Positions 34,667 to 58,822 of a DNA stretch of 58,822 nt are shown here, in pieces (the first letter of the stretch is position 1; each line of letters starts with the position of its first letter). The position numbers and the translations under genes are program-made. Location: NCBI GenBank assembly GCA_002498185.1, contig DAGO01000089.1:12118-70939 (forward strand). The letters run 5' to 3'. The notes beneath the pieces were generated by a model that saw only the letters and a list, made by a program, of their open reading frames with translations, was not told where the DNA came from and searched no databases. The stretch comes from Euryarchaeota archaeon UBA10. Lineage in GTDB: Archaea; Thermoplasmatota; Poseidoniia; Poseidoniales; Poseidoniaceae.

Positions 34667-34713
34667 AGCCGAAAGGAAACTATACCCCCTCCTTCAGTGG
34701 GAGTGTGAGCCCC

Positions 34714-43758: not shown

Positions 43759-43806
43759 AAGAAACCTATACAATGGTAGAGATGAATGGAGTAAAAGGGG
43801 ATTAAT

Positions 43807-46392
43807 GTGAGAAAGGCTATTCTTTCCTTGCTAGTCATTCTGCTGCTCGTTCAAGTTGCTTCACCGGTTTTGGCATCAACTCCCGCAAGTATTGACATTG
43901 ATTCACATCAACAATCAGTCAGTGCAGACCAAGCTATCAGATTTACTGCTGTTGTAAAGGATAGTTCAGGAAGCCCAATCAACGAGCCTATTACTTGGTC
44001 TGCGAGTTCAGGAACTATCGATTCGGATGGACTTTTCACACCGGGTGCAGTTGGTCAAACCATCATCACTGCTACAAGTGGAAGCGTAAATTCTACTACC
44101 TCAGTTCAAGTAACTGCAGGATGGCCTGTCGGAATTCAATCCGGGTTTAATTTAACCGAAGTCAGTATTGATGATTCAATCCAACTCAATGCAACATTGG
44201 TAGATCGTGCAGGCAATCCAGTTGCAGGTGATTTGACATGGAGATGCCAAAATGGAGAAATCGATTATACAAACATGACTTGGCAACCTGATGAAATCGG
44301 CAACGCAGTAATGAGAATCATCTACTTGGAATTGGAGATTCAAGTTATCTTCAATGTCATACCAGGTAGCCCGAGTACACTTGAAATCCCATTCGGATTG
44401 ACTGTACAGAGTGGCAATACTATCCACATCATACCTGTGGCCAAGGATAGCTGGGGTAATGAAGTCGGGCTATCAAAGGCAGGAGATTTAACTTGGTTTT
44501 CTGAAAATGGTTCGATTTCACCAACCGGCGTTTATTTTGGAGGAGCCCCGGGCGTTTGGAATATTAGCGTCAATAGCTCATCAGGAGCATATGGTAGTGG
44601 AGTAATCCGAGTTCTACCGGCACAAGCAACCGGATTAGATATCGAAATGGATGTTACTCAAGCAAGAACCGGTTCTCCAGTAAATCTATCCGCTATCAGA
44701 ACTGATGTCCTTGGCAATTCAGGTGAAATCCTCATTCCTCTATCTAACTGGACTGTTCCAACAGGATCTCTTTCCATGGATGGAGATTCAGTGGTTTGGA
44801 TTCCTTCGAAGATAGGAGATTGGACTATTGGTGTCAGTGACCAAGGATTTTCTGCGACTTTACAGGTTAATGTAATTCAGGGGGAGATAATAGGAATCGA
44901 CATCCTGTTGTCTGAAGACATTCTAAGGTCTGGAGAATTAATTGTAGCCTCAATTTCAGCATATGATGCAGCAGGAAATCAGCGAGCGGTTGATGGTGCC
45001 TGGAGTATCGATAGTGAATTATCTGCTGTCGACCAAGGAGATTGGATGCAACTAAGACCTGGACCAATAGGAAATTTCACGATTTCTGCAACTTGGTTCG
45101 ACAATGAAACACAATTGGTCCACGAAGTTGATTCTTTAGTTCAAGTGAAATCTGGGGAACTTGCTAGAATCGTCCTTCCTGAAAGTGGCACTAGAGTACC
45201 ATCAGATGGAGTCTTGGAATTACAACCTATTTTCGAGGATGAATATGGCAACGTCATCGATGAAGTATTGGTAACTTGGGTTGTTGATGATATTGACATG
45301 ACTATGGAAATTCGTCTTGCAGAAAACCGCTGGGCTCCTTCTAGTATTGGAATGCACGAAATCCGAGCGATGGCACAGGGAGTTTTCGCCATTACGGATG
45401 TCGAGGTTGTTGCAGGAACAGCACGACATATCTCCACCGACTATGATGAAGGATTTGAAGTGGCAAGCGCAGAGGGTGTTGAGATAACGATATCCACCTT
45501 GGATGTACACGGCAATGTTGCTTTAGCCTCCGATATCGAATTTGAGTTTGAGGACCCTGAAGGAATTGTTTCACCATCCTCGAAAGGAGAAGGATACTGG
45601 GTAGTTACTGGAGGTTTAGCGGGAGAATGGAACCTGCGACTGACAACAGGTTCAGCAACCCACGACATCGCTGTTACAGTCACACCAGGTCAAGCGGTTA
45701 GGCTACTCGCAGAAATTCCTGAACAAAATCCTGAAGAAGGCGGTAGCATGATTATGAGAGTTTACGCTATTGACCAAGCAGGAAATCGAATTGAAGTTCC
45801 TCCTGAAGATGTCACTATCAAGTGCACCACTGGTTCTGTCAAGCATTTAGCTGGAGATACGTATGAGATATCAATCGAACAAGCCGGTCAATCACAATCA
45901 TGCAATGCTTACTGGAATGACTTAGTCGCACAACGCTTCTTTGACGTTGATGCTGTATTATTTGGAGGAGGATTAGGAGATTCAAACACCGCTCTAACGA
46001 TGGTTTCGATAATCATATTCCTCTTCATTGCAATAATGGTAGTATTGATTCGCAGATTGAAAGGTGAACAAGATGACGATGGATATTGGGATGATGATTA
46101 TGACGAATATGAAGAAGACGACTCCATTCCAGACGAAACAGTTCCAGATGAAATCGAAAATGTACCTGCAGAAGTAAGTAGCGAACCTTCCAGCACTGAA
46201 ACCGCGCCAGAGACTACTAGCGAATCAAAGGAAGACTTGCGTGCAAGGTTAGCAGCAGAAGCAAAGCGAACCGGAATTATGCAGGCTGCTCCGGGTACTG
46301 AACAAGGTAAAACAGGTTGGTACATTGATTCTGATGGTCAATTGACATCATGGCTTGTTAGTGAATCAGGTGAATGGACTCGAATGTCCTGA
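43807..46392 (+). CDS. surface protein with Ig-like (Big_2-type) repeats, C-terminal TM, acidic and Trp-rich tail
   Basis: A GTG start is followed by a signal peptide (MRKAILSLLVILLLVQVASPVLAS). There are about eight ~90-aa repeats of the type ...V.W.....G.I...G.ft....G...I.A. The TM is MVSIIIFLFIAIMVVLI, followed by EQDDDGYWDDDYDEYEEDD. Confidence 0.7.
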   Translation: MRKAILSLLVILLLVQVASPVLASTPASIDIDSHQQSVSADQAIRFTAVVKDSSGSPINEPITWSASSGTIDSDGLFTPGAVGQTIITATSGSVNSTTSVQVTAGWPVGIQSGFNLTEVSIDDSIQLNATLVDRAGNPVAGDLTWRCQNGEIDYTNMTWQPDEIGNAVMRIIYLELEIQVIFNVIPGSPSTLEIPFGLTVQSGNTIHIIPVAKDSWGNEVGLSKAGDLTWFSENGSISPTGVYFGGAPGVWNISVNSSSGAYGSGVIRVLPAQATGLDIEMDVTQARTGSPVNLSAIRTDVLGNSGEILIPLSNWTVPTGSLSMDGDSVVWIPSKIGDWTIGVSDQGFSATLQVNVIQGEIIGIDILLSEDILRSGELIVASISAYDAAGNQRAVDGAWSIDSELSAVDQGDWMQLRPGPIGNFTISATWFDNETQLVHEVDSLVQVKSGELARIVLPESGTRVPSDGVLELQPIFEDEYGNVIDEVLVTWVVDDIDMTMEIRLAENRWAPSSIGMHEIRAMAQGVFAITDVEVVAGTARHISTDYDEGFEVASAEGVEITISTLDVHGNVALASDIEFEFEDPEGIVSPSSKGEGYWVVTGGLAGEWNLRLTTGSATHDIAVTVTPGQAVRLLAEIPEQNPEEGGSMIMRVYAIDQAGNRIEVPPEDVTIKCTTGSVKHLAGDTYEISIEQAGQSQSCNAYWNDLVAQRFFDVDAVLFGGGLGDSNTALTMVSIIIFLFIAIMVVLIRRLKGEQDDDGYWDDDYDEYEEDDSIPDETVPDEIENVPAEVSSEPSSTETAPETTSESKEDLRARLAAEAKRTGIMQAAPGTEQGKTGWYIDSDGQLTSWLVSESGEWTRMS

Positions 46393-47817
46393 TCATTCTT
46401 CACTAGAGTCAGCTTTCAATGATTGATTGAATTGGTAATGCTTTTTCCCGTAGATGTAGTATGAAGACAGTCCGATGATGATTGCGCCTAATGCGCCAAT
46501 TATCGCTTTCTCACCCATAATGAATACCAAGTAACCACCTGTCAGAGTACCGATAATCTGAACCCATGGGAATAATGGAGATTTGAATGAAGGCTTGTAC
46601 CAATCATGTTTTGGGTTTTCACTTCTCAGGATTATCACGCTAACATTCAATGCCACGATGACCATAATTTGGAATCCAGATGCTAGTTTAGCAACATCCT
46701 TCACTGGGAGCGTCAAAATACTGATTGCCATTGCCGCAGCAGTCAGAATAATCGCCCAGTGAGGAGTTTCGAATTTCTTATTTGTATCACACATTGTATC
46801 AGGTAGTAAACTATCTTTTGCCATTCCAAATAGGAACCTAGATGCTGCTAGAAGACCAGACAATGCTCCCGAAATCATTGTCAACACTGCTAACAGTGCT
46901 AGAGCTAATCCAATGTTAGTAGATGCAACAGCATCAACGAAAGCGAAGATTGGGTCTTCTCTAGGTGAGCCATCTGAGTTCAGCCACCATTCTCCATCGA
47001 CCGCTGCCATCATAATGAAAGTAACAACAACGTACAGCAGAGTGATTAGTAGTAGGGATATTAGCATACCTTTTGGAAGATTCTTTTCCGGTTCTTTGAC
47101 CTCTCCCCCAATCGCTCCTGCCTTGTAAATTCCTGCATAAGCAACGAAAACGAGTGCAGCTGCTTCGGCTACCAAAATTGGATCGCTTCTTGAAGTGTCT
47201 ATTGCGCCATCCATTGGACGTGAGAAATCGAAGCTAGCATCAAACAACTGAATTACACAGATTATCAGTATTAGAGCGGTAGTTAGTGCTAGGATTGGAG
47301 TTTGGAATGCTTTTACTTTCTTGATTCCAAAAATATTGAGAATAGTAATCAAGACCAAGGCGACCATAATTGTAAAAGTAGTATTTGTTGAGACATTGAG
47401 ATGGTTTGTTACAGCATACATGTAGGCTGAAAATCCGATAAGTGCAAATGCAGACTTCAACAAGAAAGATGCCCATAGTCCTAATCCACTAATCGTACCA
47501 ACCAATGGGCCAAAGGAGCGCTCCACATACACATATGCGCCACCATTATCTGGCATTGCAGATGCTAATTCAGACTTAGAAAGAGTTCCGGGAAGGAAGA
47601 CAATTCCTGCAATCAAGAATGCCAACCAAATACCAGGTCCCATAACCGCAGCAGCAAATGATGGTAGAACGAAAAGTCCTGAACCAATGCTCGCTGCAAC
47701 TGTTACGATGATAACGCCGATCAAACTGAGTGAACGCTCAATTTGGTATTTGACATCTGATACAACTCCAGAGATATCACCTTTCAGTAACTTACCAGTA
47801 GTTGATTTAATGTCCAT
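46393..47817 (-). CDS. APC-superfamily amino acid permease
   Basis: 474 aa with ~12 TM helices. The N-terminal IGSGLFVLPSFAAAVMGPGIWLAFLIAG is typical of APC permeases. Confidence 0.8.
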   Translation of the reverse strand: MDIKSTTGKLLKGDISGVVSDVKYQIERSLSLIGVIIVTVAASIGSGLFVLPSFAAAVMGPGIWLAFLIAGIVFLPGTLSKSELASAMPDNGGAYVYVERSFGPLVGTISGLGLWASFLLKSAFALIGFSAYMYAVTNHLNVSTNTTFTIMVALVLITILNIFGIKKVKAFQTPILALTTALILIICVIQLFDASFDFSRPMDGAIDTSRSDPILVAEAAALVFVAYAGIYKAGAIGGEVKEPEKNLPKGMLISLLLITLLYVVVTFIMMAAVDGEWWLNSDGSPREDPIFAFVDAVASTNIGLALALLAVLTMISGALSGLLAASRFLFGMAKDSLLPDTMCDTNKKFETPHWAIILTAAAMAISILTLPVKDVAKLASGFQIMVIVALNVSVIILRSENPKHDWYKPSFKSPLFPWVQIIGTLTGGYLVFIMGEKAIIGALGAIIIGLSSYYIYGKKHYQFNQSLKADSSEE

Positions 47818-47830
47818 AGAAAATCCTCCG

Positions 47831-47937
47831 AAAATTTCCGTTTTACGACAGATAACTCACTGTTATCTCCGGCCAAGCGACAATAGTAGTTATTGTTTAT
47901 CACCTATTTCCGAAGGACATCCCCGAAAAACGGAAAT
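47831..47937. repeat. nested inverted repeats filling the amnA-ridA / permease intergenic region
   Basis: ATTTCCGTTTT (47834-47844) pairs with AAAACGGAAAT (47927-47937) as an 11-nt perfect inverted repeat. Internal palindromes are GATAAC-TCACT-GTTATC (47851-47867) and CAATA-GTAGT-TATTG (47881-47895). Confidence 0.3.
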
Positions 47938-49325
47938 CATGCTTTAGCGATGACTTTCATTTCCACAGCAATCGGTGTAGGCAAGGCCCTAATCGCAAGT
48001 GTTGTACGTGTGGGACCTACTTTACCGAGTGTTTCAGCCCAAACTTCATTGTAACCTGAAAAATCACGGTCCATATCAACCAAGAACGATGTTACATCGA
48101 TCACTTTGTCCAACGACGAACCTGCTTCTTCGAGTATTCTTGCTATGTTGTCTACCACTGCTCTAGTTTGAGCTTTAATATCATAATTCAAAGGGTTACC
48201 ATTTGAATCTTTGATAGGTCCACCCGGTATCGAATTGTCTCCTGGTTGCCGTGGACCGACTCCGGATAGGTAAATCAAGTCGCCTTCTCTTCTAGCGTGT
48301 GGATAAGCACCGACAGGTTTGGGTGCTTTGCTGGTATTCACTGCGTTTGCACCTTCAACAGGGTCATACAATGCAGGTCCAGAATTGATTGGTTGTTTGG
48401 GTTCTGCATCTTTATCGGAATCGAGAACATTTCTGTCCCCGCCATAGAAATCGACATCGTCCTCATCGTACTCCTTGTCTCCTGTACCATTTGATTCAGG
48501 GTTTAGAACGACAACTGCTGCACCTGCACCATGTATCGGTTCGTATGCTAGTACCTCTCCAGTCAGGTCATTGCGATTATCATTCATTGCAGAGAGCCAC
48601 CACATAGGCTTGAATGCAACCACTTTCTTGACTCGAATCTGGTCGTGAATAGTACGGCTCAATTGTCCGACGTCTTCTAAGCGACCCTCTGAAAGGAACT
48701 CCAAAATCTTACGATTCCATTCGTCATCTTTCAGTGAGTGAATCCTATCTTCATGTGGCTCTATTGGTTCGGTGAACATTCTGTTTGATAGTGACATTAC
48801 GGAAACCGCTACTGCTTTTTTCCCTTGAGCCTTTACAACATCCATACATGCTTTTGCTAAGACAGTTGTCTCAGCTCTGTTAGAGTATACATTGGTAGAA
48901 CAGATTACCGCTGGTATTCTGTTGTCGGGATTTAGTAATTCCAAGGCAACGACCGAACCTACATCGACAGGGAAACCATGGTAAGAAACAGTTCTAGATT
49001 CAAGACCTCTGTTGATGTTTGCTTGGTTCCAAGCCTCCGCAAATTCTGTATCGATTCTCAGTGAATAGTGAATACTTCCTAAATCATGGAAATCAGCATC
49101 GACCATCACCCATTCAGGATTTGGGTCCGCCTGTATTTGATGCCCAATTACACTAGGCCATAGAGTAGAATAGACGATAATCAAATCAGCATCGCTCTCT
49201 TCAATTTGCCTACGTGCATCATCATAAGCATCACGAACACGTTGCCAGCCTTCATTCTTTTCAGGACATAGTACTGGATGTGGATGTGCTGGCACAATCA
49301 GTGATTTGACAATTTCACCACTCAT
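47937..49325 (-). CDS. fusion: AmnA-like (non-catalytic LigB-type extradiol dioxygenase subunit) + RidA/YjgF-family domain
   Basis: Residues 1-276 are LigB-like (IVPAHPHPV, LIIVYSTLWPS, YHGFPVDVG, EPIEPHEDRI..KDDEWNRKILEF, HGAGAAVVVL). Residues 277-328 are an acidic linker. Residues 329-462 are RidA-like (PKPVGAYPHARREGDLIYLSGVG...IDVTSFLVDMDRDFSGYNEVW...PTRTTLAIRALP..IAVEMKVIA). The start abuts the upstream stop (TGAATG). Confidence 0.65.
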   Translation of the reverse strand: MSGEIVKSLIVPAHPHPVLCPEKNEGWQRVRDAYDDARRQIEESDADLIIVYSTLWPSVIGHQIQADPNPEWVMVDADFHDLGSIHYSLRIDTEFAEAWNQANINRGLESRTVSYHGFPVDVGSVVALELLNPDNRIPAVICSTNVYSNRAETTVLAKACMDVVKAQGKKAVAVSVMSLSNRMFTEPIEPHEDRIHSLKDDEWNRKILEFLSEGRLEDVGQLSRTIHDQIRVKKVVAFKPMWWLSAMNDNRNDLTGEVLAYEPIHGAGAAVVVLNPESNGTGDKEYDEDDVDFYGGDRNVLDSDKDAEPKQPINSGPALYDPVEGANAVNTSKAPKPVGAYPHARREGDLIYLSGVGPRQPGDNSIPGGPIKDSNGNPLNYDIKAQTRAVVDNIARILEEAGSSLDKVIDVTSFLVDMDRDFSGYNEVWAETLGKVGPTRTTLAIRALPTPIAVEMKVIAKA

Positions 49326-50219
49326 TCAAGCACCCCAGTTTCGACATGGCCATTCCATGATTGCATTTCCTGTTCCAATAATCGTACCGTAGCCGTGCAG
49401 GATAGCAGGCTCACTTGGGACTCCCATTGCTGACAATAACCAAGTCAGTGCACCTCCGTCAGTTTCAGCAATTGCTTGCTCACAGAATTCAGGCATTTCA
49501 TTGATTATTTGCTGAGACTTTCCTTCGCGCATCATCTCGATCATGCGCATGTCCCACAAATGCATTGCATGGCTAGTGATGTGCTCTTTGCTCATGTCTT
49601 CAGGTGGATTAGTTTCTGTTACGAAGTGGCGATGTGAGAGAGAATTACTCGCAATCAGCAGACACTTCTTTCCGCTTTCTTCAATCGCTTTAGCAGTGGA
49701 CTTACCAAGTTCAATCATCATTTCTTGCATGACTTCCACAGAGTAGTATGACAAACTACGGTTTGATGAAATTGAAACAATTGGCTTATCCCACTCAGGC
49801 CTTACCATATGACAAGAAACAATTGTGCCATAATCGACTCTAAAATCAGGGTTAGTCATCATCTTGACAGACATTCCTTCTGATTTTGCTTGGTCGTGAA
49901 TAGCCTTAGCTAATTCAACATCTATTGTTAAATCATAATTGAAACGAAACAGGTTAGGGAATACTGGGTCAACACTTTTGGAAGAGCATTTCTCCACACC
50001 AATGAAATGGGTACCAACATAGGTTTGCCAGTGCGGCGACAATATTACGATAACATCGTAATCAACATCCTTCAATGATTCACGCAGCCGTTCATAGCCC
50101 CATCTGAGTTGCTCCCAGCCACCTTCGGAGACTGGCTCATTTTGCTCTGGGTTCTCTGCATAAACCAAATGCGGTGGATGCGGTGCAAGGCAACCTGCAA
50201 CAATTCCTCCCTTCGCCAT
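49326..50219 (-). CDS. AmnB-like catalytic subunit of a class III (LigB-type) extradiol dioxygenase
   Basis: GCLAPHPPHLV, VIVILSPHWQ and SNSLSHRH. It is paralogous to the N-terminal part of the downstream gene but keeps the His in the SPHW block, where the partner has STLW. Confidence 0.7.
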   Translation of the reverse strand: MAKGGIVAGCLAPHPPHLVYAENPEQNEPVSEGGWEQLRWGYERLRESLKDVDYDVIVILSPHWQTYVGTHFIGVEKCSSKSVDPVFPNLFRFNYDLTIDVELAKAIHDQAKSEGMSVKMMTNPDFRVDYGTIVSCHMVRPEWDKPIVSISSNRSLSYYSVEVMQEMMIELGKSTAKAIEESGKKCLLIASNSLSHRHFVTETNPPEDMSKEHITSHAMHLWDMRMIEMMREGKSQQIINEMPEFCEQAIAETDGGALTWLLSAMGVPSEPAILHGYGTIIGTGNAIMEWPCRNWGA

Positions 50220-50274
50220 AACGCGACCACAAGGTTCCGCATCTTCTATTCATCGGCGACTCTTGGGCCGCAAC

Positions 50275-50682
50275 ATGGGAGATAAGCCCGACATGAAGTT
50301 GCGCCACGTAGTTTGGCCTTCTCTATTCGCTATTGGCCTTGTTTTTGTCAGTGTAATAGCATTGGATGAAAACAAATTTCCACCTATGATTATCGCATTA
50401 ATTGCTGCAGTCCTTACCGCACCACTCCTTGCCAAAATAACCAATGCAGGAGACATGAAGGAACACGCATTTGGAGTAGCAGTAGTATGTGTTCCAATGT
50501 CAGTGGCGTGGATTATCGGTCCGAATTACTTCAACATCGCAATCCCATTTTTGATTTGGATTTGGCAGTGTGCTTCTTGGTCAAAAAAGAATCATCCACC
50601 GTTTAGATATGGTATCTGGCATGGATTCGGGATTGCATCCTGTATCCTACCAGGTGCTATGTTAGTTGCAAACCTGGTCTAG
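50275..50682 (+). CDS. hypothetical four-TM membrane protein
   Basis: Small hydrophobic ORF on the opposite strand. It interrupts the minus-strand array, and its 3' end overlaps the panB 3' end by 4 nt. The start is uncertain (TTG 50263, ATG 50275 or ATG 50293). Confidence 0.4.
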
Positions 50683-51494
50683 TAAGATTCCTCTTCATTA
50701 GGGAAATCTCCGCCGCGAACATCTTCACAATATTGCTCTACTGCGCCAGTAATTTGGCTTTCTAAGTCGAGATATCTTCTTAGGAATCTCGGACTGAAAT
50801 CGGTTGTTATTCCCAACATGTCATGTAAAACCAAGACTTGACCATCACAATCCTGTCCTGCACCAATACCAATCGTAGGGATCGATAGAGCATCACTCAC
50901 TTGCTTGGCAAGATGAGCAGGTATCTTTTCTAGGACTATCGCGAAACAACCAGCTTCTTCCAACAGTTTGGCATCAGCAATCAACTTCGCAGCCTCTTCC
51001 TCTTCCTTTGCACGAACTGTGTATGTACCGAATTTGTAAATCGATTGAGGAGTCAGTCCCAAGTGACCCATTACTGGGATTCCTGCTGTCAATATCCTCT
51101 GAATACTTTCAACAATTTCAGCGCCACCTTCCAACTTGACTGCATGGCCGCCGGATTCTTTCATGATGCGGATTGCACTCTCTAATGCAATCGCAGAGTT
51201 TCCTTGGTAAGTTCCAAACGGCATATCTACGACGATTAGTGCCCTATCTACCGCTCTCTCGACACACTGCGCATGGTAAATCATGTGCTCAAGACTCATT
51301 GGTACAGTTGTGTCCCTTCCAGCCATGACATTAGATGCCGAGTCTCCAACCAAAATTACGTCAACTCCACCTCTGTCTACCAACTTGGCTAGACTGAAAT
51401 CATATGCTGTCAGCATAGTGATTTTCTCACCTGCCCTCTTCATTTCCTGAAGAGTGTGAGTTGTCACTTTGCGAGCGTTTGCATGCACTGACAT
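50679..51494 (-). CDS. panB: 3-methyl-2-oxobutanoate hydroxymethyltransferase
   Basis: [62 protein letters not shown] and IVLEKIP are canonical PanB blocks. Confidence 0.9.
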
Positions 51495-51531
51495 GAGTTT
51501 GCCTCCGACACTGCGACAGGTATCTCTGCCT

Positions 51532-52911
51532 TCAATCTTCCATCACGCAGATATTGACCGCTTCTGAGAAAAATCCGAGCGACCACATTCCACCTTCTCG
51601 GCCAACTCCGCTGTCTTTTACGCCTCCAAACGGAACTCGTAAATCTCTGTGCAGCCATGTATTGACCCAAACCATTCCAGAATCGATTTGCTCTGCAACT
51701 TTTCGCCCTCTTCCCTTTGACCAAACGCTACCTGCTAGGCCATATTGAGTGCAGTTTGCGATCTTGATTGCTTCTTCATCTGATTCAAATTTATGAACTG
51801 TAACTACCGGGCCAAATATCTCTTCGGTAGCAGTTCTAGAGTCATGTGAAAGTCCGGAGATAACAGTAGGTTCTATCCAAGCGCCCTGCTTGTTTGGAAC
51901 ACTACCACCGCTCAAGATGGTTCCACCTTCTTGTTTAGCTAATTCGATGTATGAAAGGACCTTTGCGCGATGTTCATCACTAATCACTGGCCCGATTTCA
52001 AAACTCTTCAACTCTTCTAGGTATCTCTCCATGAATTCGTCATAGATTGATGAATGAACCAAAACTCGTGAACCGCACAAACAGATTTGACCAGAATTGA
52101 GGAAAGATGCCCGTAAAACTCCGGGGACTGCGATATCTAAATCCGCGTCATCCAATACCAATGAAGCGTTCTTGCCTCCCAGCTCAAGACTCAATTTCTT
52201 GAACATAGGAGCCGCTGTTGCTGCTACAATCTTGCCCGTCGAGGTCCCGCCTGTGAAAGAAATCGCCCTAATTTCGGGGTGCTCTACAATCGCTTGACCA
52301 ACTTCTGGCCCATATCCATGAACAATGTTCAAAACCCCTTCAGGAAGACCAATTTGTGCGCATATTTTCGCTAAGAAATGGGCGGTCAAAGGTGTGATTT
52401 CACTTGGCTTAGCAATAATGGCATTACCCATCAACAGTGCTGGAGCAATTTTCCAAGATAGTAGATACAGTGGAAGATTCCAAGGGGATATCAATCCCAC
52501 TACGCCAATTGGTTTTCTCACAACGTAATTGGTTGCATCAGGCATCTGGAAAGTTTGTGATTCCATCCTGCGTCCAAAATCAGCAAAGAATCTGAAGTTG
52601 TTAACCGATCTATTTGCATCTACGTTCAGAGCTACATGATGCGGTTTACCTGTGTCCAGCGATTCTAATCGAGCAATTTCCTCGATTTGGCTCTCAAGTT
52701 CATTCGCAATTTTGTCTAGCCAATCACATCGCTGCTCAATGCTTAGCGCACCCCAATCTGGCTGTGCAGATTTAGCTGCCCCGACTGCGTCATCCACATT
52801 TTTAGTTCGAGGGACCTTTGCGATAATCGAGAAATCTAGAGGAGAAATATCATCGAAATCCTCACTGAGAGTTACGAATTTTCCTCCAATGTAATTCTCA
52901 ACTTGGATCAT
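51532..52911 (-). CDS. aldehyde dehydrogenase, 2-hydroxy/2-aminomuconic semialdehyde dehydrogenase-like clade
   Basis: [21 protein letters not shown] (the NFRFFA block I associate with the XylG/DmpC/AmnC/ALDH8A1 clade), [16 protein letters not shown] and the catalytic Cys in GQICLCGSR. The start ATG overlaps the upstream stop (ATGA at 52908-52911). Confidence 0.8.
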
Positions 52912-54110
52912 GTATCCACCTCGTAATGCCATCGATCACGGTCAGGGTCCCACTCATCCCAAGTCGGGATTGTCTTCAACACATCATGCAATGAATCAGG
53001 CACTATACCTGGAACAATAAACGCCTTCTGACGCTCTAAAGGATACGGATTTCTCAGTTCAATACCTAGGCAGCCGAGTATTGCCCTGGCGACATACCAT
53101 GTTGCTTGTGAGTTCCAACCATGAGCAATTTTTACAACAATACCCAACCCATTCGGGTAATCAGGATGCTCAATCGCCATTCCTAGAAGGCCATCTGCAC
53201 CTTCTTTTGCTATGACTTTGCCCTTGCCGATTTTCAAAATTGTTGAATCTAATCTGTTGAAACCGCCAACTAAATCGGGATTTTTACACATTGCTTCCCA
53301 AATCCAATCTGAATCTTTATCCTGAACTAAGCCAGCATAAATCTTGGCTAGTTCAGCGACTGTATTGGAAACAGTAGGCAATCCACACCCGTCTTTGGCG
53401 ATTCTTTGAGGATTCCAATCTTTACCTAGGAATCTTCTCAGTTGCTCCATGTATGCCTCAAACACTTCGTGGGTAGGAAGTGTGTATCCTGCACGATTCC
53501 ATCCCTTAGCTCTACACCCTGCAAGTATTGCTGCGTGCTCTCCACTGCATGTGTGATACCAGCGTCTTGGCCTTCTGACTTGGCGGCCAAATTGAATCAG
53601 AGGAACGTCAACCGGAGTGAGCATCAGAGGCCACTCCGCTTCCGAAAGTAATGATTGAGCAGCAGCAACGTGTTCTGTATCTCCATTATGGCTGGCTACT
53701 GATATCGCTTTTTGCTCCCAAGAGCAATATTCCAACTCCTTAGTGAACGCTTTCAGCATGAATGGTTTCATCATCGACCTGCCATAACACAGAACATTTC
53801 CTCCGAACGAATGGATGACTTCATCTCCATGGCACCATGCAACAGCACCATGAATCGTGGTTTCAGAGACTCCATTTCTTCGATAATCAACCAATGGTTC
53901 CCACTCAACATCCCTGCCGGTTGGAATGCCTTCGATGTCTTCGCCAAGAGGAGAATCCGGGTAAATTGCTGAACCCGGCTTACCGGGGGCTACAGCAGAG
54001 TTCTTGTCATGTCTCAAGTCCAATTTCTCACCCCAGTAGTGGAACCACTTCACTCCACCAAGCTTCCATATTGCGCACGACTCTTGCACTGTCATGATTG
54101 AAGAAATCAA
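52908..54110 (-). CDS. asparaginase-II family (PF06089-like) protein
   Basis: HGAVAW..GDEVIHSFGG...GRSMMKPFM, SVASHNGDTEHV, HTCSGEHAAILAGC, KDGCGLPT and IAKEGADGL are collinear with the Rhizobium-type asparaginase II signature as remembered. The start is uncertain: ATG 54110 or 54095 overlaps the upstream gene by ~70-83 nt, and GTG 54053 by 26 nt. Confidence 0.55.
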   Translation of the reverse strand: MISSIMTVQESCAIWKLGGVKWFHYWGEKLDLRHDKNSAVAPGKPGSAIYPDSPLGEDIEGIPTGRDVEWEPLVDYRRNGVSETTIHGAVAWCHGDEVIHSFGGNVLCYGRSMMKPFMLKAFTKELEYCSWEQKAISVASHNGDTEHVAAAQSLLSEAEWPLMLTPVDVPLIQFGRQVRRPRRWYHTCSGEHAAILAGCRAKGWNRAGYTLPTHEVFEAYMEQLRRFLGKDWNPQRIAKDGCGLPTVSNTVAELAKIYAGLVQDKDSDWIWEAMCKNPDLVGGFNRLDSTILKIGKGKVIAKEGADGLLGMAIEHPDYPNGLGIVVKIAHGWNSQATWYVARAILGCLGIELRNPYPLERQKAFIVPGIVPDSLHDVLKTIPTWDEWDPDRDRWHYEVDT

Positions 54111-55239
54111 ACCAACACATTAGACGGTCCTCAGGATGGAACCTTTCCAATACCTGCTTTGCTACTTCCTCAGGATTGCCAATGAGTGCATTGTCTGCAG
54201 CTCTTTCAACCTTTGAAGGGTCCAGAGTTCCCTCAAGTGCTTTCCAATATTCACCCAAAGCAAGACGGGCTTCATCATGAGCCGCCAAAGATTGTTCTTC
54301 AGGAGAGAGGCCTTCCTCTGCATTTAGGAAAACGAATGTTGTTCGAGGCATATCTCTTCTTTGCCATTCCCCGCCATCCTTGTGGAATACTTTGCTCATC
54401 CTTTCATGTGTTGAATCAATGACTTCAGGAGAGGTTATTGAGAGGTTGAAAACCTTCACTGGCATGAACTTGTTAACGTACTCTTGTGCTCTTGGGTCAT
54501 GGGTTCCTGCAACTAATTCCAGTTGGTTCCGAGGCCAGTTTTTCGGTACGATTGAGATTTCCTCAAACTGATATCTCCTGCCAATTTCTATCTCATCAGG
54601 CTGGCCACCTGCAGCATTTTGAACAGCGTTCCAATCTTCATCGGAACGGAAATTCTCTCTTGACAAAACTGTTGAACGGATCTCATCGGAACTAATGGTG
54701 TCTCCTCGCAATAGTCGAAGGAATATTTCGCTTGCTTCCATGAATATTTGTCCACGCAGTGCTGGCCAAGCAGCTTCTTCAACGGCGTTTCTAGGAATTA
54801 TTCCGTAAGGGCGAGCCATGAACTCAAATCTTCCGGCACTGAATCCAACGTGTAACTTACGATTGGAATCCATGTAAGATAGGAATTGAACAGTGTTAGC
54901 CATTCTTTCCGCTTGAGCAATAGGGCCCCCGCTTGCTAGAATACTAACTACAGCCGAACCTACATCGATTCTCTCTGTTCTCCTAAACGATTCCATAGCT
55001 AACTGGGGAAAATCTGTGCAAAGGCCAACTTCTCCTTTCCAGTGAGGTACCACTGGTCTTGAGTTACTTTGCTGAGTTTGTGTAGATAAATGGGCTTGTG
55101 CAATCCAAGCCACACCGAATCCTAAACGGTCTGCTGCTTCCAATTGCTCGTAGTAATTTGCGAACATTTCTGCTTCGCTGGGAGTGAATCCATTATGGTC
55201 TGGAGTTTGTGATATCGAGAAGAATATGTCGAACTCCAT
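54028..55239 (-). CDS. LLM-class (luciferase-like) flavin- or F420-dependent oxidoreductase
   Basis: MEFDIFFSISQTPD...EMFANYYEQLEAADRLGFGVAWIAQAHLS is a typical luciferase-like monooxygenase N-terminus. The length (403 aa) is consistent with the family. Confidence 0.7.
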   Translation of the reverse strand: MEFDIFFSISQTPDHNGFTPSEAEMFANYYEQLEAADRLGFGVAWIAQAHLSTQTQQSNSRPVVPHWKGEVGLCTDFPQLAMESFRRTERIDVGSAVVSILASGGPIAQAERMANTVQFLSYMDSNRKLHVGFSAGRFEFMARPYGIIPRNAVEEAAWPALRGQIFMEASEIFLRLLRGDTISSDEIRSTVLSRENFRSDEDWNAVQNAAGGQPDEIEIGRRYQFEEISIVPKNWPRNQLELVAGTHDPRAQEYVNKFMPVKVFNLSITSPEVIDSTHERMSKVFHKDGGEWQRRDMPRTTFVFLNAEEGLSPEEQSLAAHDEARLALGEYWKALEGTLDPSKVERAADNALIGNPEEVAKQVLERFHPEDRLMCWFDFFNHDSARVVRNMEAWWSEVVPLLG

Positions 55240-55281
55240 ACAATCCCTCTCCCTAAGGGAGAGGGCCTCGATGTATCAACA

Positions 55282-56085
55282 TCACTGTTGTGCGGTTAGT
55301 TTTGAAATGCGTTCACGCACAGGCTCAGGTACAATAGCACCTGCTTCCATGAATACCGTCATAATATCAGATAGCTGAACCATTGCTTCATCCGGTTGAT
55401 TTGAAATTTCAGCAAGGTCTGCAAGACCCCATCTTGCGACCAAAATCCCGGATAACTCTTGCAATTCAGTAGCAATTTCCAATGACTCAATCAACAATGC
55501 TTGCGCTTGTTCTAACTCGCCCAGAGAAGAATGTGAATGTGCCAAATCTGCCAGCGCCTCCATCCTTTCGAACTTCTCGGTTTCCGGGATGATGTCTAAC
55601 CTTTTTTGGAGATGGAGTTGACTTTTCTCAAAGTCTTCTTCAGATTTAGCAATATGTGCTAGTAATGCATGTCCGTAGATCATACCTTCCAAGTCATCGG
55701 CCTGTTCTCTCAATCTCATTGAGCGGTTAGCAAACAATCCTGCTTCATCACTACCAAGAGACATCAATGAAACGTGATGGAAGATACCTGCTGCGAGACC
55801 TGGAAGGCCGTCTTTTTCTGATTGAACTCCCAAGCCAATCAACTCATCTCTGCTAGCACCTTGATGTTTCAGCAACTCGAATTGGCACCAACCTTGGTCT
55901 TCAGGATTTTCAGAAACTTTCGCAGCATGGTCCAGTAGTCTGCCAACTAATGCATCTCTGCCTAACTCCCTAGCAAGGTCTACCAAATGTAATGCCAAAC
56001 TGGTGTTGATGGAATCAATCAGTTTACCGTCGGCAAACATATCCATTAGTTCCTCTGCCTGAGCCTGAGTCATTTCGGTCATCAT
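55282..56085 (-). CDS. helical-repeat (TPR-like) protein
   Basis: 267-aa acidic, all-helical-looking ORF with repeated A..L..LA....G....A pairs. No catalytic signature. Confidence 0.4.
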   Translation of the reverse strand: MMTEMTQAQAEELMDMFADGKLIDSINTSLALHLVDLARELGRDALVGRLLDHAAKVSENPEDQGWCQFELLKHQGASRDELIGLGVQSEKDGLPGLAAGIFHHVSLMSLGSDEAGLFANRSMRLREQADDLEGMIYGHALLAHIAKSEEDFEKSQLHLQKRLDIIPETEKFERMEALADLAHSHSSLGELEQAQALLIESLEIATELQELSGILVARWGLADLAEISNQPDEAMVQLSDIMTVFMEAGAIVPEPVRERISKLTAQQ

Positions 56086-56091
56086 AACACC

Positions 56092-56877
56092 TCAGATTGA
56101 GCGCATTCGGCCACCGTCAACAGCAAGTGAAACACCTCGGATGCCGCCGGATATAGGCATGCAGAGGTAAGTAATCGCAGCTCCTGTTTCAAGTGGGTCA
56201 ATCAGCCTGTCAATTGGAACTTGAGACATCCATCCATCGTGTATCTCTTCGATGCTTTTTCCAGTCTTAGAATTAATCGAAGATGCTAGAGAACCAAGAC
56301 GGTCTGTATCTGTAAATCCGGGCAGGACATTGTTGATTGTGATGCAGGTTGGAAGTTCACGAGAAAGTGACTTTGCCCACGAGGCCATTGCTCCTCTCAA
56401 TGTATTGGAAAGTCCAATGTTTGGAATTGGTTCTCTAACCGATGTTGAGATTATGTTGACAATCCTGCCCATCCCGACTTTCTCCATCAGTGGCACGACA
56501 CCCCTAACCAATGTGTGTGATGCATGTAGATGTCTCTTGAATGGTGCTTCAAAATCTTCGACCTCATTGTCTAGCAGAGGCCCCCCTGGTGGACCTGCTG
56601 CATTGTTAATTAGGATGTGGCATTCTTCAATTGAAGAAATAAATTTCCCAATTGCTTCTTGATCTTCTAAATCAAGGCTAATTCCCGTATGTCCTTCACC
56701 TTCAAGAGTAGCAACTAAATCGTGCGGATTCCTACTTACTGCAGTAACTTTAGCACCAGCTTTAGCGAGCATCTTTGCTGTTGCTGCACCTATTCCTTTG
56801 GACGCCCCACATACAATTGCATGCTTTCCGATAAGCGCATTAGAGGAAAAGGGAAAGTCATCTCCTAGCCAGTCCAT
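56092..56877 (-). CDS. SDR-family oxidoreductase
   Basis: KHAIVCGASKGIGAATAKMLAKAGAKV (TG...GIG Rossmann motif), NNAAG, and PGFTDT near the C-terminus. Start taken at MDWLGDD. Confidence 0.8.
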   Translation of the reverse strand: MDWLGDDFPFSSNALIGKHAIVCGASKGIGAATAKMLAKAGAKVTAVSRNPHDLVATLEGEGHTGISLDLEDQEAIGKFISSIEECHILINNAAGPPGGPLLDNEVEDFEAPFKRHLHASHTLVRGVVPLMEKVGMGRIVNIISTSVREPIPNIGLSNTLRGAMASWAKSLSRELPTCITINNVLPGFTDTDRLGSLASSINSKTGKSIEEIHDGWMSQVPIDRLIDPLETGAAITYLCMPISGGIRGVSLAVDGGRMRSI

Positions 56878-56908
56878 GTATACGCCAAGTAGCGCTGGGT
56901 ATTGAACC

Positions 56909-57640
56909 TTACAACCAATCTCTAATGGTCTCAACTTGTGTTAACCAATCATCACTAGCAACATCAATGATTGAATAATGGTCTCCCGGCAACCATACTT
57001 TCTGGACTTCGACGCCCTTGGCTTTCATAGCCCTAGCATATGATTCTGATTGAATCCATGGAACGTCTTGGTCTGCCTTGCCGTGCATCAGTACAACAGA
57101 AGTCTTTGGAGGGTTGTCAACGGGATTTACTCGACGCCACAACTCCTCATTGCCCTCAGGGGCACAACCCATCCAACGACGCACTGCATCTCCACCATCA
57201 GATAATTTTGCATGATCTGCAGCCACAATATCTGCAATAGGCGCTTGTGCTATTGTTAGCCAAGGTTTTCTCTCAGCAACAGCTGACATCATCAATGCCA
57301 GATGGCCCCCTGCAGAGTGGCCCAGAATCATCGAGCGTACAATGTCTATACCTGGTAGAAGCGCAAGTTGGCCCCAAGCCCTCATTACATCAGAAAGAGT
57401 ATCCATCCAGACACCTTCATCTCCATCTTCCCAGCCTTTGAATTCAATATTCCATGCAGCAATACCCTGTTCCGCCAAATCTTCAGCGATTGGAGCCATC
57501 AAATCAAGGGTGAATTTCTTTCTCCAGAAGCCTCCGTGTATCAGCATCACACATGGTATTCCCTCGTCCTTTTGGTACGGAGATGGTTCATCCGGCATGT
57601 ACAAATCAGCAAACTGCCAATCTTCAGCACCCCACTGCAT
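56909..57640 (-). CDS. alpha/beta hydrolase, arylformamidase (kynurenine formamidase)-like
   Basis: VMLIHGGFWRKKF...ILGHSAGGHLALMM...HGKADQDVP. The HGG(Y/F)W oxyanion block plus the GHSAG.HLA nucleophile elbow resemble AFMID/Bna7-type formamidases. Start taken at Met27 (57640) to avoid overlapping the aspS 3' end. Confidence 0.55.
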   Translation of the reverse strand: MQWGAEDWQFADLYMPDEPSPYQKDEGIPCVMLIHGGFWRKKFTLDLMAPIAEDLAEQGIAAWNIEFKGWEDGDEGVWMDTLSDVMRAWGQLALLPGIDIVRSMILGHSAGGHLALMMSAVAERKPWLTIAQAPIADIVAADHAKLSDGGDAVRRWMGCAPEGNEELWRRVNPVDNPPKTSVVLMHGKADQDVPWIQSESYARAMKAKGVEVQKVWLPGDHYSIIDVASDDWLTQVETIRDWL

Positions 57641-57665
57641 GCGGTCTACTGCCAATTTTACCAAC

Positions 57666-58822
57666 TCAAGGTGTAACTCTGCTGCGGTCTCTTGGGAAGA
57701 GAACTGTTTCACGAACATTTCTGGAACCAGTCAGCACCATCAGCAAACGTGCCACTCCCAATCCCCATCCAGCGTGAGGTGGAGCCCCGTAGCGGAAACC
57801 ATCTGTGTAGAATGTGAAATCCGCCGGGTCTAATTCCATGTTTCTCAAATTCTGTTCTAGAACGTCAACATTGTGTTCTCTCTGTCCACCACTCGTCATC
57901 TCGTCTCGGCCATAATTCAAATCGAATCCTCGAGACAGTTGCTCGCCAGTGGAACCAAGTTCCCCCGGTACATGATGAATGTAGAATGGTTTCATCGACA
58001 TTGGCCAACGAGGCAAGAAGTGGAACCCAGGATACTTCGCTGCAATAATGTCGCAATGGGAAGACTCGATATCATCCCCCCATGTGATTTCAACACCAGC
58101 ATCTTGAATCATCTTGATGGCGTCGCAATACTCAATCCTCGGGAATGGCAGGCTAGGGACTTCAACGGAAATTGGTTCGTCTCCTTGGCTCGCTCGGTAT
58201 TCGTTGATGATGTCGATTTGGTCTTGGTCATTTTCTGCAACCGTCTTCCAAATGTGATGAATCATTCTTTCTTGAACACACATGACATCATCATCATTCA
58301 TCCATGCTCCTTCAATATCGAAGGATATGAACTCGTTTAGGTGTCTGTAAGTATCGTGCTTCTCAGCACGGAATGCCGGACCAATTTCGAATACCCTTTC
58401 CATTCCTCCAAGCACAGTCAACTGCTTGTATAATTGTGGACTCTGGGATAAGAAAGCAGGAGTATCGAAATACATCATTGGGAATAAATTGGTTCCACCT
58501 TCTGATGCAGAAGCGATGATTTTTGGAGAGTTAATTTCCTTGAATCCTTCAGTAATTAGATGCTCTCTACCATACTGTAGAACTTTTGCTCTTAGAGTGA
58601 ACATTGCGTTGACATGTGCTCTTCTCAAATCCAAAAATCGGTTATCAAGACGAGTATCAAGACCGATAGAAACAGTGTCTGTCACTCCTAGAGGGAGAGG
58701 AGTTTCTGCCTGTGCAAGAACTACAAATTTGGAAGCTACCACTTCATAGGAGGGCGGTGGAACTGGTTCTCCTTCGGCAACCTTAGGTGGGCGCTTTTGT
58801 GCTACTTCACCAACAATTTGAA
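57666..58822 (-). CDS. aspS: aspartate--tRNA ligase, archaeal/eukaryal type (5' partial, runs off window)
   Basis: FRAEKHDTYRHLNEFISFDIEGAW, GGQREH, YGAPPHAGWGLGVARLLM and LFPRDRSRVTP are class IIb motifs 2-3. The frame stays open upstream of the listed GTG (..QIVGEVAQKRPPKVAEGEPVPPPSYEVVASKF) to base 58822. Confidence 0.85.
   Translation of the reverse strand, partial: QIVGEVAQKRPPKVAEGEPVPPPSYEVVASKFVVLAQAETPLPLGVTDTVSIGLDTRLDNRFLDLRRAHVNAMFTLRAKVLQYGREHLITEGFKEINSPKIIASASEGGTNLFPMMYFDTPAFLSQSPQLYKQLTVLGGMERVFEIGPAFRAEKHDTYRHLNEFISFDIEGAWMNDDDVMCVQERMIHHIWKTVAENDQDQIDIINEYRASQGDEPISVEVPSLPFPRIEYCDAIKMIQDAGVEITWGDDIESSHCDIIAAKYPGFHFLPRWPMSMKPFYIHHVPGELGSTGEQLSRGFDLNYGRDEMTSGGQREHNVDVLEQNLRNMELDPADFTFYTDGFRYGAPPHAGWGLGVARLLMVLTGSRNVRETVLFPRDRSRVTP

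Follow-up and report, generated by a model that had tools for sequence, protein, structure and literature searches.

A proposed kynureninase-independent route from tryptophan through 2-aminophenol in a Marine Group II gene array

Gene clusters that serve to degrade 2-aminophenol have been described in bacteria. The amn clusters of Pseudomonas sp. AP-3 and Burkholderia xenovorans LB400 and the cnb genes of Comamonas CNB-1 encode a two-subunit LigB-type dioxygenase, an AmnC-type dehydrogenase and a RidA-type deaminase. The ARO microcompartment locus of Actinobacteria likewise carries AmnBA and AmnC homologues; the study of that locus gave both its upper pathway and the natural compound from which 2-aminophenol arises as unknown (PMC10470539). 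The same enzyme types, familiar from bacteria that degrade pollutants, are found in a 58,822 nucleotide stretch, called the window here, of Euryarchaeota archaeon UBA10 (contig DAGO01000089.1, positions 12,118 to 70,939), a member of the Poseidoniaceae (Marine Group IIa, MGIIa, of Marine Group II) whose genome is 75% complete. We read the region as the form that a kynureninase-independent tryptophan catabolism via 2-aminophenol takes in Marine Group II, and put the probability of this at about 0.6. The amn-type enzymes lie in a conserved array with a luciferase-like flavin monooxygenase (LLM) and an Asparaginase_II-family protein (AsnII), and in related archaeal families and on bacterial contigs tryptophan 2,3-dioxygenase (TDO) and the arylformamidase KynB belong to the same arrays. 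An earlier note, made from the letters of the window, had proposed a functional catabolic unit tied to tryptophan or kynurenine, and these arrays supply that tie.

How does the locus compare with the described systems? It differs from the bacterial amn clusters in the fusion of AmnA to the deaminase and in its archaeal host, and no set of 4-oxalocrotonate decarboxylase, hydratase, aldolase and acetaldehyde dehydrogenase was found with it; its 2-aminophenol is proposed to come from tryptophan and not from nitrobenzene or aniline derivatives. The TDO, semialdehyde dehydrogenase and 2-aminomuconate deaminase steps are common in kind to the canonical kynurenine pathway, but here an LLM monooxygenase and an asparaginase-like hydrolase would stand in between. 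Unlike the ARO locus, whose dioxygenase 7txy is among the PDB matches obtained, it has no shell proteins, and it offers a candidate for the upper pathway. In its proposed logic the route matches the 4-hydroxyacetophenone pathway of Pseudomonas fluorescens ACB, in which the Baeyer-Villiger monooxygenase HAPMO and an aryl ester hydrolase reportedly take an aryl ketone to an aryl ester, a phenol and then ring cleavage. HAPMO has another fold and works as a single-component FAD/NADPH enzyme, whereas here the oxygenase would be a luciferase-like TIM barrel and the hydrolase an asparaginase homologue.

The two bridging enzymes also have relatives. The class 3 asparaginases ReAV and ReAIV (PF06089; 7os3, 8cly) are of the same family as the AsnII-like protein and have the Ser-x-x-Lys, Ser-His, Cys and Lys motifs in common with it. 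The AsnII-like protein is distant from them (E 1e-14 to 1e-17), has Glu for the Lys of CSGKH and carries an N-terminal extension in Poseidoniales; its genomic partner is always LLM, and it is sometimes fused to KynB. LLM is predicted to share the TIM-barrel fold of type II Baeyer-Villiger enzymes such as 3,6-diketocamphane monooxygenase (4uwm), but it forms its own small subfamily and its substrate would be an amino acid aryl ketone. No description of a route from kynurenine to 2-aminophenol was found in the literature searched, only neighbouring work; a 2026 preprint covers only the steps after 2-aminomuconate, in eukaryotes. New here are the core standing of the proposed route in Marine Group II, its split layout with TDO unlinked, and a three-way displacement at the formamidase slot.

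The proposed pathway runs in seven steps. TDO, encoded elsewhere in the genome, would open tryptophan to N-formylkynurenine (step 1), which would be deformylated by an alpha/beta hydrolase, by a formyltransferase-fold (FT) protein in Marine Group IIb (MGIIb), and by KynB in other lineages (step 2). LLM would carry out a Baeyer-Villiger reaction on kynurenine, placing an oxygen between its ketone and its aryl ring (step 3); the product would be aspartate 2-aminophenyl beta-ester, or, if an O-to-N acyl shift follows, N4-(2-hydroxyphenyl)asparagine. The AsnII-like hydrolase would cleave the ester or anilide to L-aspartate and 2-aminophenol (step 4). AmnB/AmnA would open the ring to 2-aminomuconic 6-semialdehyde (step 5), an aldehyde dehydrogenase (ALDH) would oxidise this to 2-aminomuconate (step 6), and the RidA domain fused to AmnA would deaminate the latter to 4-oxalocrotonate (step 7).

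Kynurenine is asparagine with its amide nitrogen replaced by an aryl carbon, i.e. an aryl-ketone analogue, and enzymes of the luciferase-like flavoenzyme family typically attack a carbonyl with a peroxyflavin. An aspartate aryl ester or anilide would be a natural substrate for an asparaginase-like hydrolase, and a conversion of kynurenine to aspartate and 2-aminophenol would let each bridging enzyme keep to the usual chemistry of its family. Since TDO and KynB lie in the arrays, the pathway input has to be kynurenine, formylated or not, and the output has to be a substrate of AmnB, which is ~57% identical to true 2-aminophenol dioxygenases. The Baeyer-Villiger hypothesis was set down before the gene contexts in bacteria and in f28 and f30, two further Thermoplasmatota families, were seen. 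That LLM is a kynurenine Baeyer-Villiger monooxygenase whose product the asparaginase homologue splits to L-aspartate and 2-aminophenol could as well be wrong as right. The genes of the window concerned are the following.

57666-58820, minus strand: aspS, non-discriminating, archaeal type
56909-57718, minus strand: alpha/beta hydrolase, Pfam BD-FAE and Peptidase_S9, with HGGFW, GHSAGGH and conserved Asp and His
56092-56934, minus strand: short-chain dehydrogenase (SDR), adh_short E 4e-30
55282-56085, minus strand: TPR-repeat protein, weak TPR_12 and MalT-TPR matches
54028-55239, minus strand: LLM, Bac_luciferase E 4e-7
52908-54110, minus strand: AsnII-like hydrolase, PF06089 E 6e-48
51532-52932, minus strand: ALDH, predicted AmnC-type, best NCBIfam match 2-hydroxymuconic semialdehyde dehydrogenase, TIGR03216
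50679-51494, minus strand: panB, ketopantoate hydroxymethyltransferase, TIGR00222, 335 bits
50263-50682, plus strand: small hydrophobic ORF of 139 aa, no Pfam or NCBIfam family
49326-50219, minus strand: LigB family protein, AmnB
47937-49325, minus strand: fusion of LigB and RidA domains, AmnA::RidA
46393-47817, minus strand: APC amino acid permease, AA_permease_2 E 7e-45

Every gene named in the earlier note is an open frame of the ORF listing at these coordinates, and all of its family assignments were borne out by Pfam and NCBIfam scans. The gaps of 6-42 nt that it gave are also as claimed (SDR/TPR 6 nt, TPR/LLM 42 nt, ALDH/panB 37 nt); the other junctions in the run from aspS to panB overlap.

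The ring-opening half is, by comparison with solved enzymes, a true amn module, with a LigB-type beta subunit, an adjacent alpha subunit, an AmnC-type dehydrogenase and a RidA-type deaminase. AmnB aligns end to end (residues 1-292) with the beta subunits of 2-aminophenol 1,6-dioxygenase (8ihg_A, E 3.6e-112; 3vsg_B, 5e-109), and its motifs PHPPH, SPHW, LSHxHF and AE are identical to those of 8ihg_A and 3vsg_B; its iron-binding His, His and Glu and its catalytic His are presumably those of the CnbC structure. The gene for AmnA::RidA abuts amnB. Residues 5-272 of the fusion match AmnA chains at E 1e-42 (3vsg_A) to 1e-33, and the SPHW of AmnB reads STLW here, the histidine being lost. AmnB is predicted as the catalytic beta subunit and AmnA as the non-catalytic alpha subunit. 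The RidA part (residues 334-460) has the 2-aminomuconate deaminase 6izh as its best match (E 1.8e-26), ahead of generic RidA proteins, and the fusion is retained in 80 of 80 Poseidoniaceae loci and in the f28 and f30 arrays. ALDH has 2-aminomuconic semialdehyde dehydrogenases as its best PDB matches (7bzv, 1.6e-140, and 4i1w), and is predicted to be an AmnC-type 2-aminomuconic 6-semialdehyde dehydrogenase. The earlier note had named the AmnB/AmnA-RidA pair and, from its NFRFFA block, an ALDH of the AmnC/ALDH8A1 clade, and these matches agree.

How far is the array conserved? Gene order was compared in relatives, where genomes within one order are non-independent samples. Eighty Poseidoniaceae (MGIIa) loci share the order TPR-LLM-AsnII-ALDH-panB-ORF-AmnB-AmnA::RidA-APC, and their fusion proteins are 71-95% identical. 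In one MGIIa clade the block of aspS, hydrolase and SDR lies on the other side of the array, and in one MGIIa locus the LLM-AsnII-ALDH block is inverted as a unit. A split form is found in MGIIb: amnB-amnA::RidA-APC-panB is often >100 kb from the rest, and aspS, the FT protein, SDR, LLM, AsnII and ALDH are still contiguous. In the MGIIb genome G015, FT-SDR-LLM-AsnII-ALDH-AmnB-AmnA::RidA-APC-panB form one co-directional run. LLM-AsnII-ALDH is the tightest unit, contiguous across the order and present in the f28 and f30 arrays, and LLM and AsnII are adjacent in nearly every lineage examined. The earlier note looked to synteny in relatives, and the core genes are indeed syntenic across MGIIa, MGIIb and other Thermoplasmatota families.

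Could the adjacency be an inherited order of unrelated housekeeping genes that have no shared function? Poseidoniaceae genomes are broadly syntenic, and panB, aspS, TPR, LON-domain and Exo_endo_phos genes are interspersed, as this explanation would have it. The core linkage, however, survives rearrangements, both the move of aspS-hydrolase-SDR and the inversion of LLM-AsnII-ALDH, and it persists across phyla; chance synteny is extremely improbable.

Not all genes of the array belong to the unit. The earlier note included panB, the TPR gene and the opposite-strand ORF as cluster parts, but they are not conserved members. In MGIIb, panB follows the permease and is not inside the array, and it has no match in the f28 and f30 arrays. 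The TPR protein is 39-50% identical between MGIIa genera and has no match in MGIIb or in the f28 and f30 arrays; where its gene is absent, in MGIIb, SDR abuts LLM. The small hydrophobic ORF is weakly conserved in Poseidoniaceae (27-78% identity). All three look like passengers, panB being a housekeeping gene and the TPR protein an MGIIa-only insert that is probably not catalytic. In some Poseidoniaceae genera an Exo_endo_phos gene, on the opposite strand, and a LON substrate-binding-domain gene (L047:1116-2084, L047:6917-7639) sit within the array, which therefore tolerates unrelated inserts such as panB. Contigs of four marine metatranscriptome runs (three studies) cover most array genes; they are too short to resolve transcript units, strand or expression level, and may include carried-over DNA.

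Outside the Poseidoniales the link to tryptophan becomes direct. Within the Thermoplasmatota LLM is found only in Poseidoniales, f28 and f30, and TDO is present in all 31 LLM-bearing genomes versus 14 of 120 without LLM. In two f28 loci TDO-LLM-AsnII-ALDH-AmnB-AmnA::RidA-KynB-SDR form a single array. Its LLM-to-KynB part is retained in a third f28 locus and in the f30 locus, whose genomes encode TDO elsewhere. In a bacterial genome of 9.2 Mb, LLM is followed by a fusion of AsnII with an arylformamidase (KynB) domain (TIGR03035, E 5e-52) and then by TDO. TDO-AsnII-LLM form one overlapping operon in a Logan contig of SRR10168895 (L120:2000-15000). Two more bacterial contigs have LLM and then AsnII, and on two bacterial contigs LLM is followed by a PrnB-like haem dioxygenase gene, close to which lie genes for tryptophan synthase, TDO and an alpha/beta hydrolase. 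Among 46 metagenome loci of bacterial-type LLMs, 31 have an AsnII homologue (directly downstream of LLM in 29), nine have KynB and eight TDO; most of those without AsnII end just past LLM. One of the 46 contigs (L146) carries the whole pathway and one (L168) the Amn half up to the contig end.

It may be asked whether the Amn genes instead degrade aminophenols from seawater, with LLM and AsnII acting on another amide or heterocycle and the TDO/KynB link reflecting shared regulation or nitrogen scavenging. Such a view would suit the separate contig on which TDO lies in the source genome, the many bacterial LLM-AsnII pairs that stand alone, and the amino acid permease adjoining the array. LLM, an amidohydrolase, RidA, an alpha/beta hydrolase and a reductase together also recall the Rut pyrimidine pathway. 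It does not explain why TDO, KynB, LLM, AsnII, ALDH and AmnBA::RidA form one co-directional array in two archaeal families and on a bacterial contig, why AsnII is physically fused to an arylformamidase domain, or why LLM is never without TDO in the 31 Thermoplasmatota genomes. This explanation is decidedly unlikely. A Rut-like pyrimidine pathway made up of LLM, the amidohydrolase, RidA, the alpha/beta hydrolase and SDR was itself considered and rejected, as the RidA part is fused to AmnA and best matches 2-aminomuconate deaminase.

For the route from tryptophan via 2-aminophenol, the other kynurenine genes of the genome are of interest. The earlier note found TDO, KMO, kynureninase and cupin-type HAAO to be missing from the window, as they are, and suggested a search of the whole genome. 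TDO (PF03301, E 3e-61) is there, on contig C79 beside purP-like and rpoK genes. The rest of that search came out negative: kynureninase (TIGR01814) had no match, and neither an ACMSD-type amidohydrolase nor the 4-oxalocrotonate pathway set was found in the 75%-complete genome. KMO was not found there either, the FAD_binding_3 matches scanned further being geranylgeranyl reductases, and cupin HAAO gave no match in a search that had no working control. The KynB cyclase was found neither in the source genome nor in any of 61 Poseidoniales genomes. A Flavin_Reduct gene is present, unlinked to the array. Of 121 genomes of the order, 119 have TDO and 116 have AmnB, and among 59 genomes with a completeness of 90% or more only one has a kynureninase over the cut-off. 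Poseidoniales keep the first kynurenine enzyme and the last three of the aminophenol branch, and the textbook middle was not found. The lone case among the 59 is a full-scoring kynureninase (426 bits) of an MGIIb genome (G035:C29:6106-7323, locus L097), which could be a lateral acquisition or a binning contaminant.

How, then, is the middle bridged? LLM might replace KMO, by C3 hydroxylation, and AsnII might replace kynureninase or cut a later intermediate; AmnBA would cleave 3-hydroxyanthranilate or 3-hydroxykynurenine, and CO2 would be lost without ACMSD. The same linkage evidence underlies this proposal. Both compounds are also ortho-aminophenols, and by chemical reasoning the deaminated 3-carboxy intermediate, a beta-keto acid, could decarboxylate unaided. 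On the other hand, a Ser-Lys amidohydrolase would need to perform a C-C cleavage that is PLP-dependent in kynureninase and is not known from its own family, and to our knowledge aromatic hydroxylation is rare among LLM enzymes. The close relatives of AmnB were characterised on plain 2-aminophenol, and ALDH and the deaminase best match enzymes of the non-carboxylated pathway. We regard the replacement of KMO as unlikely. A variant in which the ring of 3-hydroxykynurenine is cleaved before an aspartate-releasing C-C hydrolysis was rejected as less parsimonious. The earlier note had suggested LLM and AsnII as replacements for a hydroxylase and an amide or C-N hydrolase; their membership in the pathway stands, but hydroxylase and kynureninase-like roles are chemically strained, and a Baeyer-Villiger route via 2-aminophenol does not need them.

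The formamidase step offers a further hint of function. The HGGFW and GHSAGG motifs, Asp and His of the alpha/beta hydrolase are invariant among 16 homologues, and its profile reaches the Drosophila kynurenine formamidase 4e11 at E 1.6e-5, at rank 15 behind esterases. The hydrolase is found in 32 of 33 MGIIa genomes and one of 26 MGIIb genomes, and the FT-fold protein in one of 33 and 24 of 26, respectively. The single MGIIa genome with the FT-fold protein is the one without the hydrolase; the two are mutually exclusive across genomes. In MGIIb the FT-fold protein, of 245 aa, is encoded between aspS and SDR (L121:12084-12821 in genome G027; G015:C9:34059-34778). It has a Formyl_trans_N domain without being a PurN, Fmt or PurU equivalog, and among solved structures it is closest to PurN and to the 10-formyltetrahydrofolate dehydrogenase hydrolase domain. 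Where f28 loci have an SDR, as two do, a gene for a KynB-type cyclase lies beside it. The slot beside SDR is filled by three folds, two of which are tied to formyl chemistry by family.

Because formyl-handling folds occupy the same slot, the alpha/beta hydrolase is argued to be an N-formylkynurenine formamidase. It is a credible, MGIIa-specific candidate, weak if judged from its sequence alone. Of its earlier description as arylformamidase-like, the motifs and the slot displacement fit, although the sequence is closer to carboxylesterases. In MGIIb the FT-fold enzyme may deformylate N-formylkynurenine in a folate-linked reaction, which might conserve the one-carbon unit. SDR always adjoins the presumed deformylase. 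It is found in the Poseidoniales, f28 and f30 arrays and had no match in the 46 bacterial-type LLM metagenome loci; it accompanies the archaeal arrays examined and may have a step in the pathway.

The LLM subfamily is small, with 317 representatives among 1.8 billion proteins. Its AF2 model (pLDDT 90.9) is a TIM barrel, which Foldseek matches to luciferases, to monooxygenases of the LLM type and to 4uwm, a type II Baeyer-Villiger enzyme (E 1e-15 to 1e-11, probability 1.0), and its likeness to these exceeds that to F420 enzymes. Identity to the Foldseek matches is 13-17%, and the PDB sequence search gave only E 0.016. The AsnII-like protein matches Rhizobium etli ReAIV and ReAV at E 4e-17 and 2e-14. 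The motifs RSxxKP, ASH, DGCxLPT and AKEGADG are conserved, and CSGKH has become CSGEH, its Lys being Glu in the archaeal proteins and variable in bacterial partners; the Ser-x-x-Lys, both Cys and the late Lys are kept. These features, together with the flavin reductase gene of the genome, are supporting but non-diagnostic for LLM as the proposed kynurenine Baeyer-Villiger monooxygenase and for the AsnII-like protein as the proposed beta-aspartyl aryl ester or anilide hydrolase.

Might the array be biosynthetic, with picolinate, a precursor of quinolinate or NAD, or a pigment or other metabolite derived from 2-aminophenol as its product? LLM homologues also occur in natural-product-like clusters with AMP-binding, GNAT and MFS genes, and 2-aminomuconic semialdehyde is stated in a passage of PMC3790839 to cyclise spontaneously to picolinate. 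A dedicated semialdehyde dehydrogenase and a fused deaminase, however, would divert flux from picolinate, NAD synthesis would require a carboxylated intermediate, and the genes are core in streamlined heterotroph genomes of 1.3-2.1 Mb. A biosynthetic role is very unlikely. For the catabolic route to 2-aminophenol and beyond, the AA_permease_2 gene downstream of AmnA::RidA in MGIIa and MGIIb (45-88% identity) may possibly encode an importer of substrate; the permease has no match in the f28 and f30 arrays. The sole FAA_hydrolase gene of the genome is YcgM-like. In an f30 genome (G171) the run SDR-LLM-AsnII-ALDH-AmnB-AmnA::RidA-KynB has, directly upstream of it, genes for an aldolase of the HpcH/HpaI type and a hydratase of the MaoC type (L127:12008-13422), and these two are candidates for the steps past 4-oxalocrotonate.

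Several points weigh against the route as drawn. What happens chemically in steps 2-4 is inferred from gene context and chemical reasoning, as is the sequence of steps 2 and 3. At step 2, the carboxylesterase 9x6a is nearer to the alpha/beta hydrolase (3e-21) than are the known kynurenine formamidases. At step 3, we know of no aryl-ketone oxidation by the luciferase-like family, and the fold match of LLM is generic (TM 0.58-0.66), with the Baeyer-Villiger enzyme 4uwm at rank 19, behind luciferases and uncharacterised monooxygenases. The Lys that has become Glu in the AsnII-like protein is one we take to be the zinc-site Lys of ReAV, the roles of the ReAV residues being likewise our assumption. 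ALDH scores 531 bits against TIGR03216, under the equivalog cut-off of 693, and the set of 4-oxalocrotonate decarboxylase, hydratase, aldolase and acylating dehydrogenase was not found in the window or in the 75%-complete genome. As for linkage, TDO is unlinked to the array in Poseidoniales; phyletic profiling of TDO versus AmnB within that order was uninformative, both being near-universal there. Most bacterial LLM-AsnII pairs are without TDO or an amn gene within 8 kb, and no AmnB homologue was found, with the query used, in the 9.2-Mb bacterium that has LLM, AsnII::KynB and TDO.

Marine Group II archaea are uncultured and among the most abundant heterotrophs of the surface ocean. If the proposal is true, a core tryptophan route would alter how their use of amino acids and nitrogen is read from genomes and metatranscriptomes. 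Kynurenine would have a third fate after kynureninase and KMO, core to Marine Group II and scattered in bacteria, with aspartate and not alanine released from the side chain, and two large enzyme families would gain new functions. There would also be a natural source of 2-aminophenol for amn-type pathways, and thus an answer to the question, left by the ARO study (PMC10470539), of which natural compound supplies 2-aminophenol dioxygenases away from polluted sites. Every proposed step can be tested with commercial kynurenine and recombinant proteins.

Some reading frames of the window are probably shorter than listed. The alpha/beta hydrolase is likely to start later, near 57655, which would give about 248 aa, and the start of ALDH is probably at 52911. 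The AsnII-like protein probably starts near 54014. As its homologues show no alignment before residue 33 of the longest frame, the extended AsnII/LLM overlap is probably an artefact of start choice. Poseidoniales AsnII-like proteins have a conserved N-terminal extension of ~40 residues that the bacterial partners are without.

LLM homologues are also found in other settings. The TDO-AsnII-LLM operon of L120 is surrounded by AMP-binding, PALP, DUF1611, MR_MLE, acyl-CoA-dehydrogenase-like, GNAT and MFS genes and a second, short LLM, and looks like a natural-product cluster that uses TDO, AsnII and LLM. A small GNAT gene recurs beside LLM in L115, L116 and L120. L115 and L130 (GCA_053747735.1, GC 71%) represent a microcompartment locus with three BMC shell genes and EutN. 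It contains TDO, an LLM 46% identical to that of the window, a PrnB-like haem dioxygenase, GNAT, alpha/beta hydrolase, PALP, DUF1611 and MR_MLE genes, with trpA and trpB adjoining. It was considered as an ARO-type amn locus and rejected, as it has no AmnBA; it appears to be a tryptophan-related microcompartment of another kind. The neighbourhoods of two distant LLM homologues, L111 and L113, were uninformative. P0123, an LLM representative of 1501 aa, was set aside as a probable mis-call and not a real fusion, as it was located on no contig and has unrelated GATase and ApbE parts. In the window itself, 34705-46392 is taken up by two very large genes for surface proteins of 3017 aa and 861 aa that have Big_1 domains, and these genes reach right to the permease gene; they are unrelated to the catabolic array.

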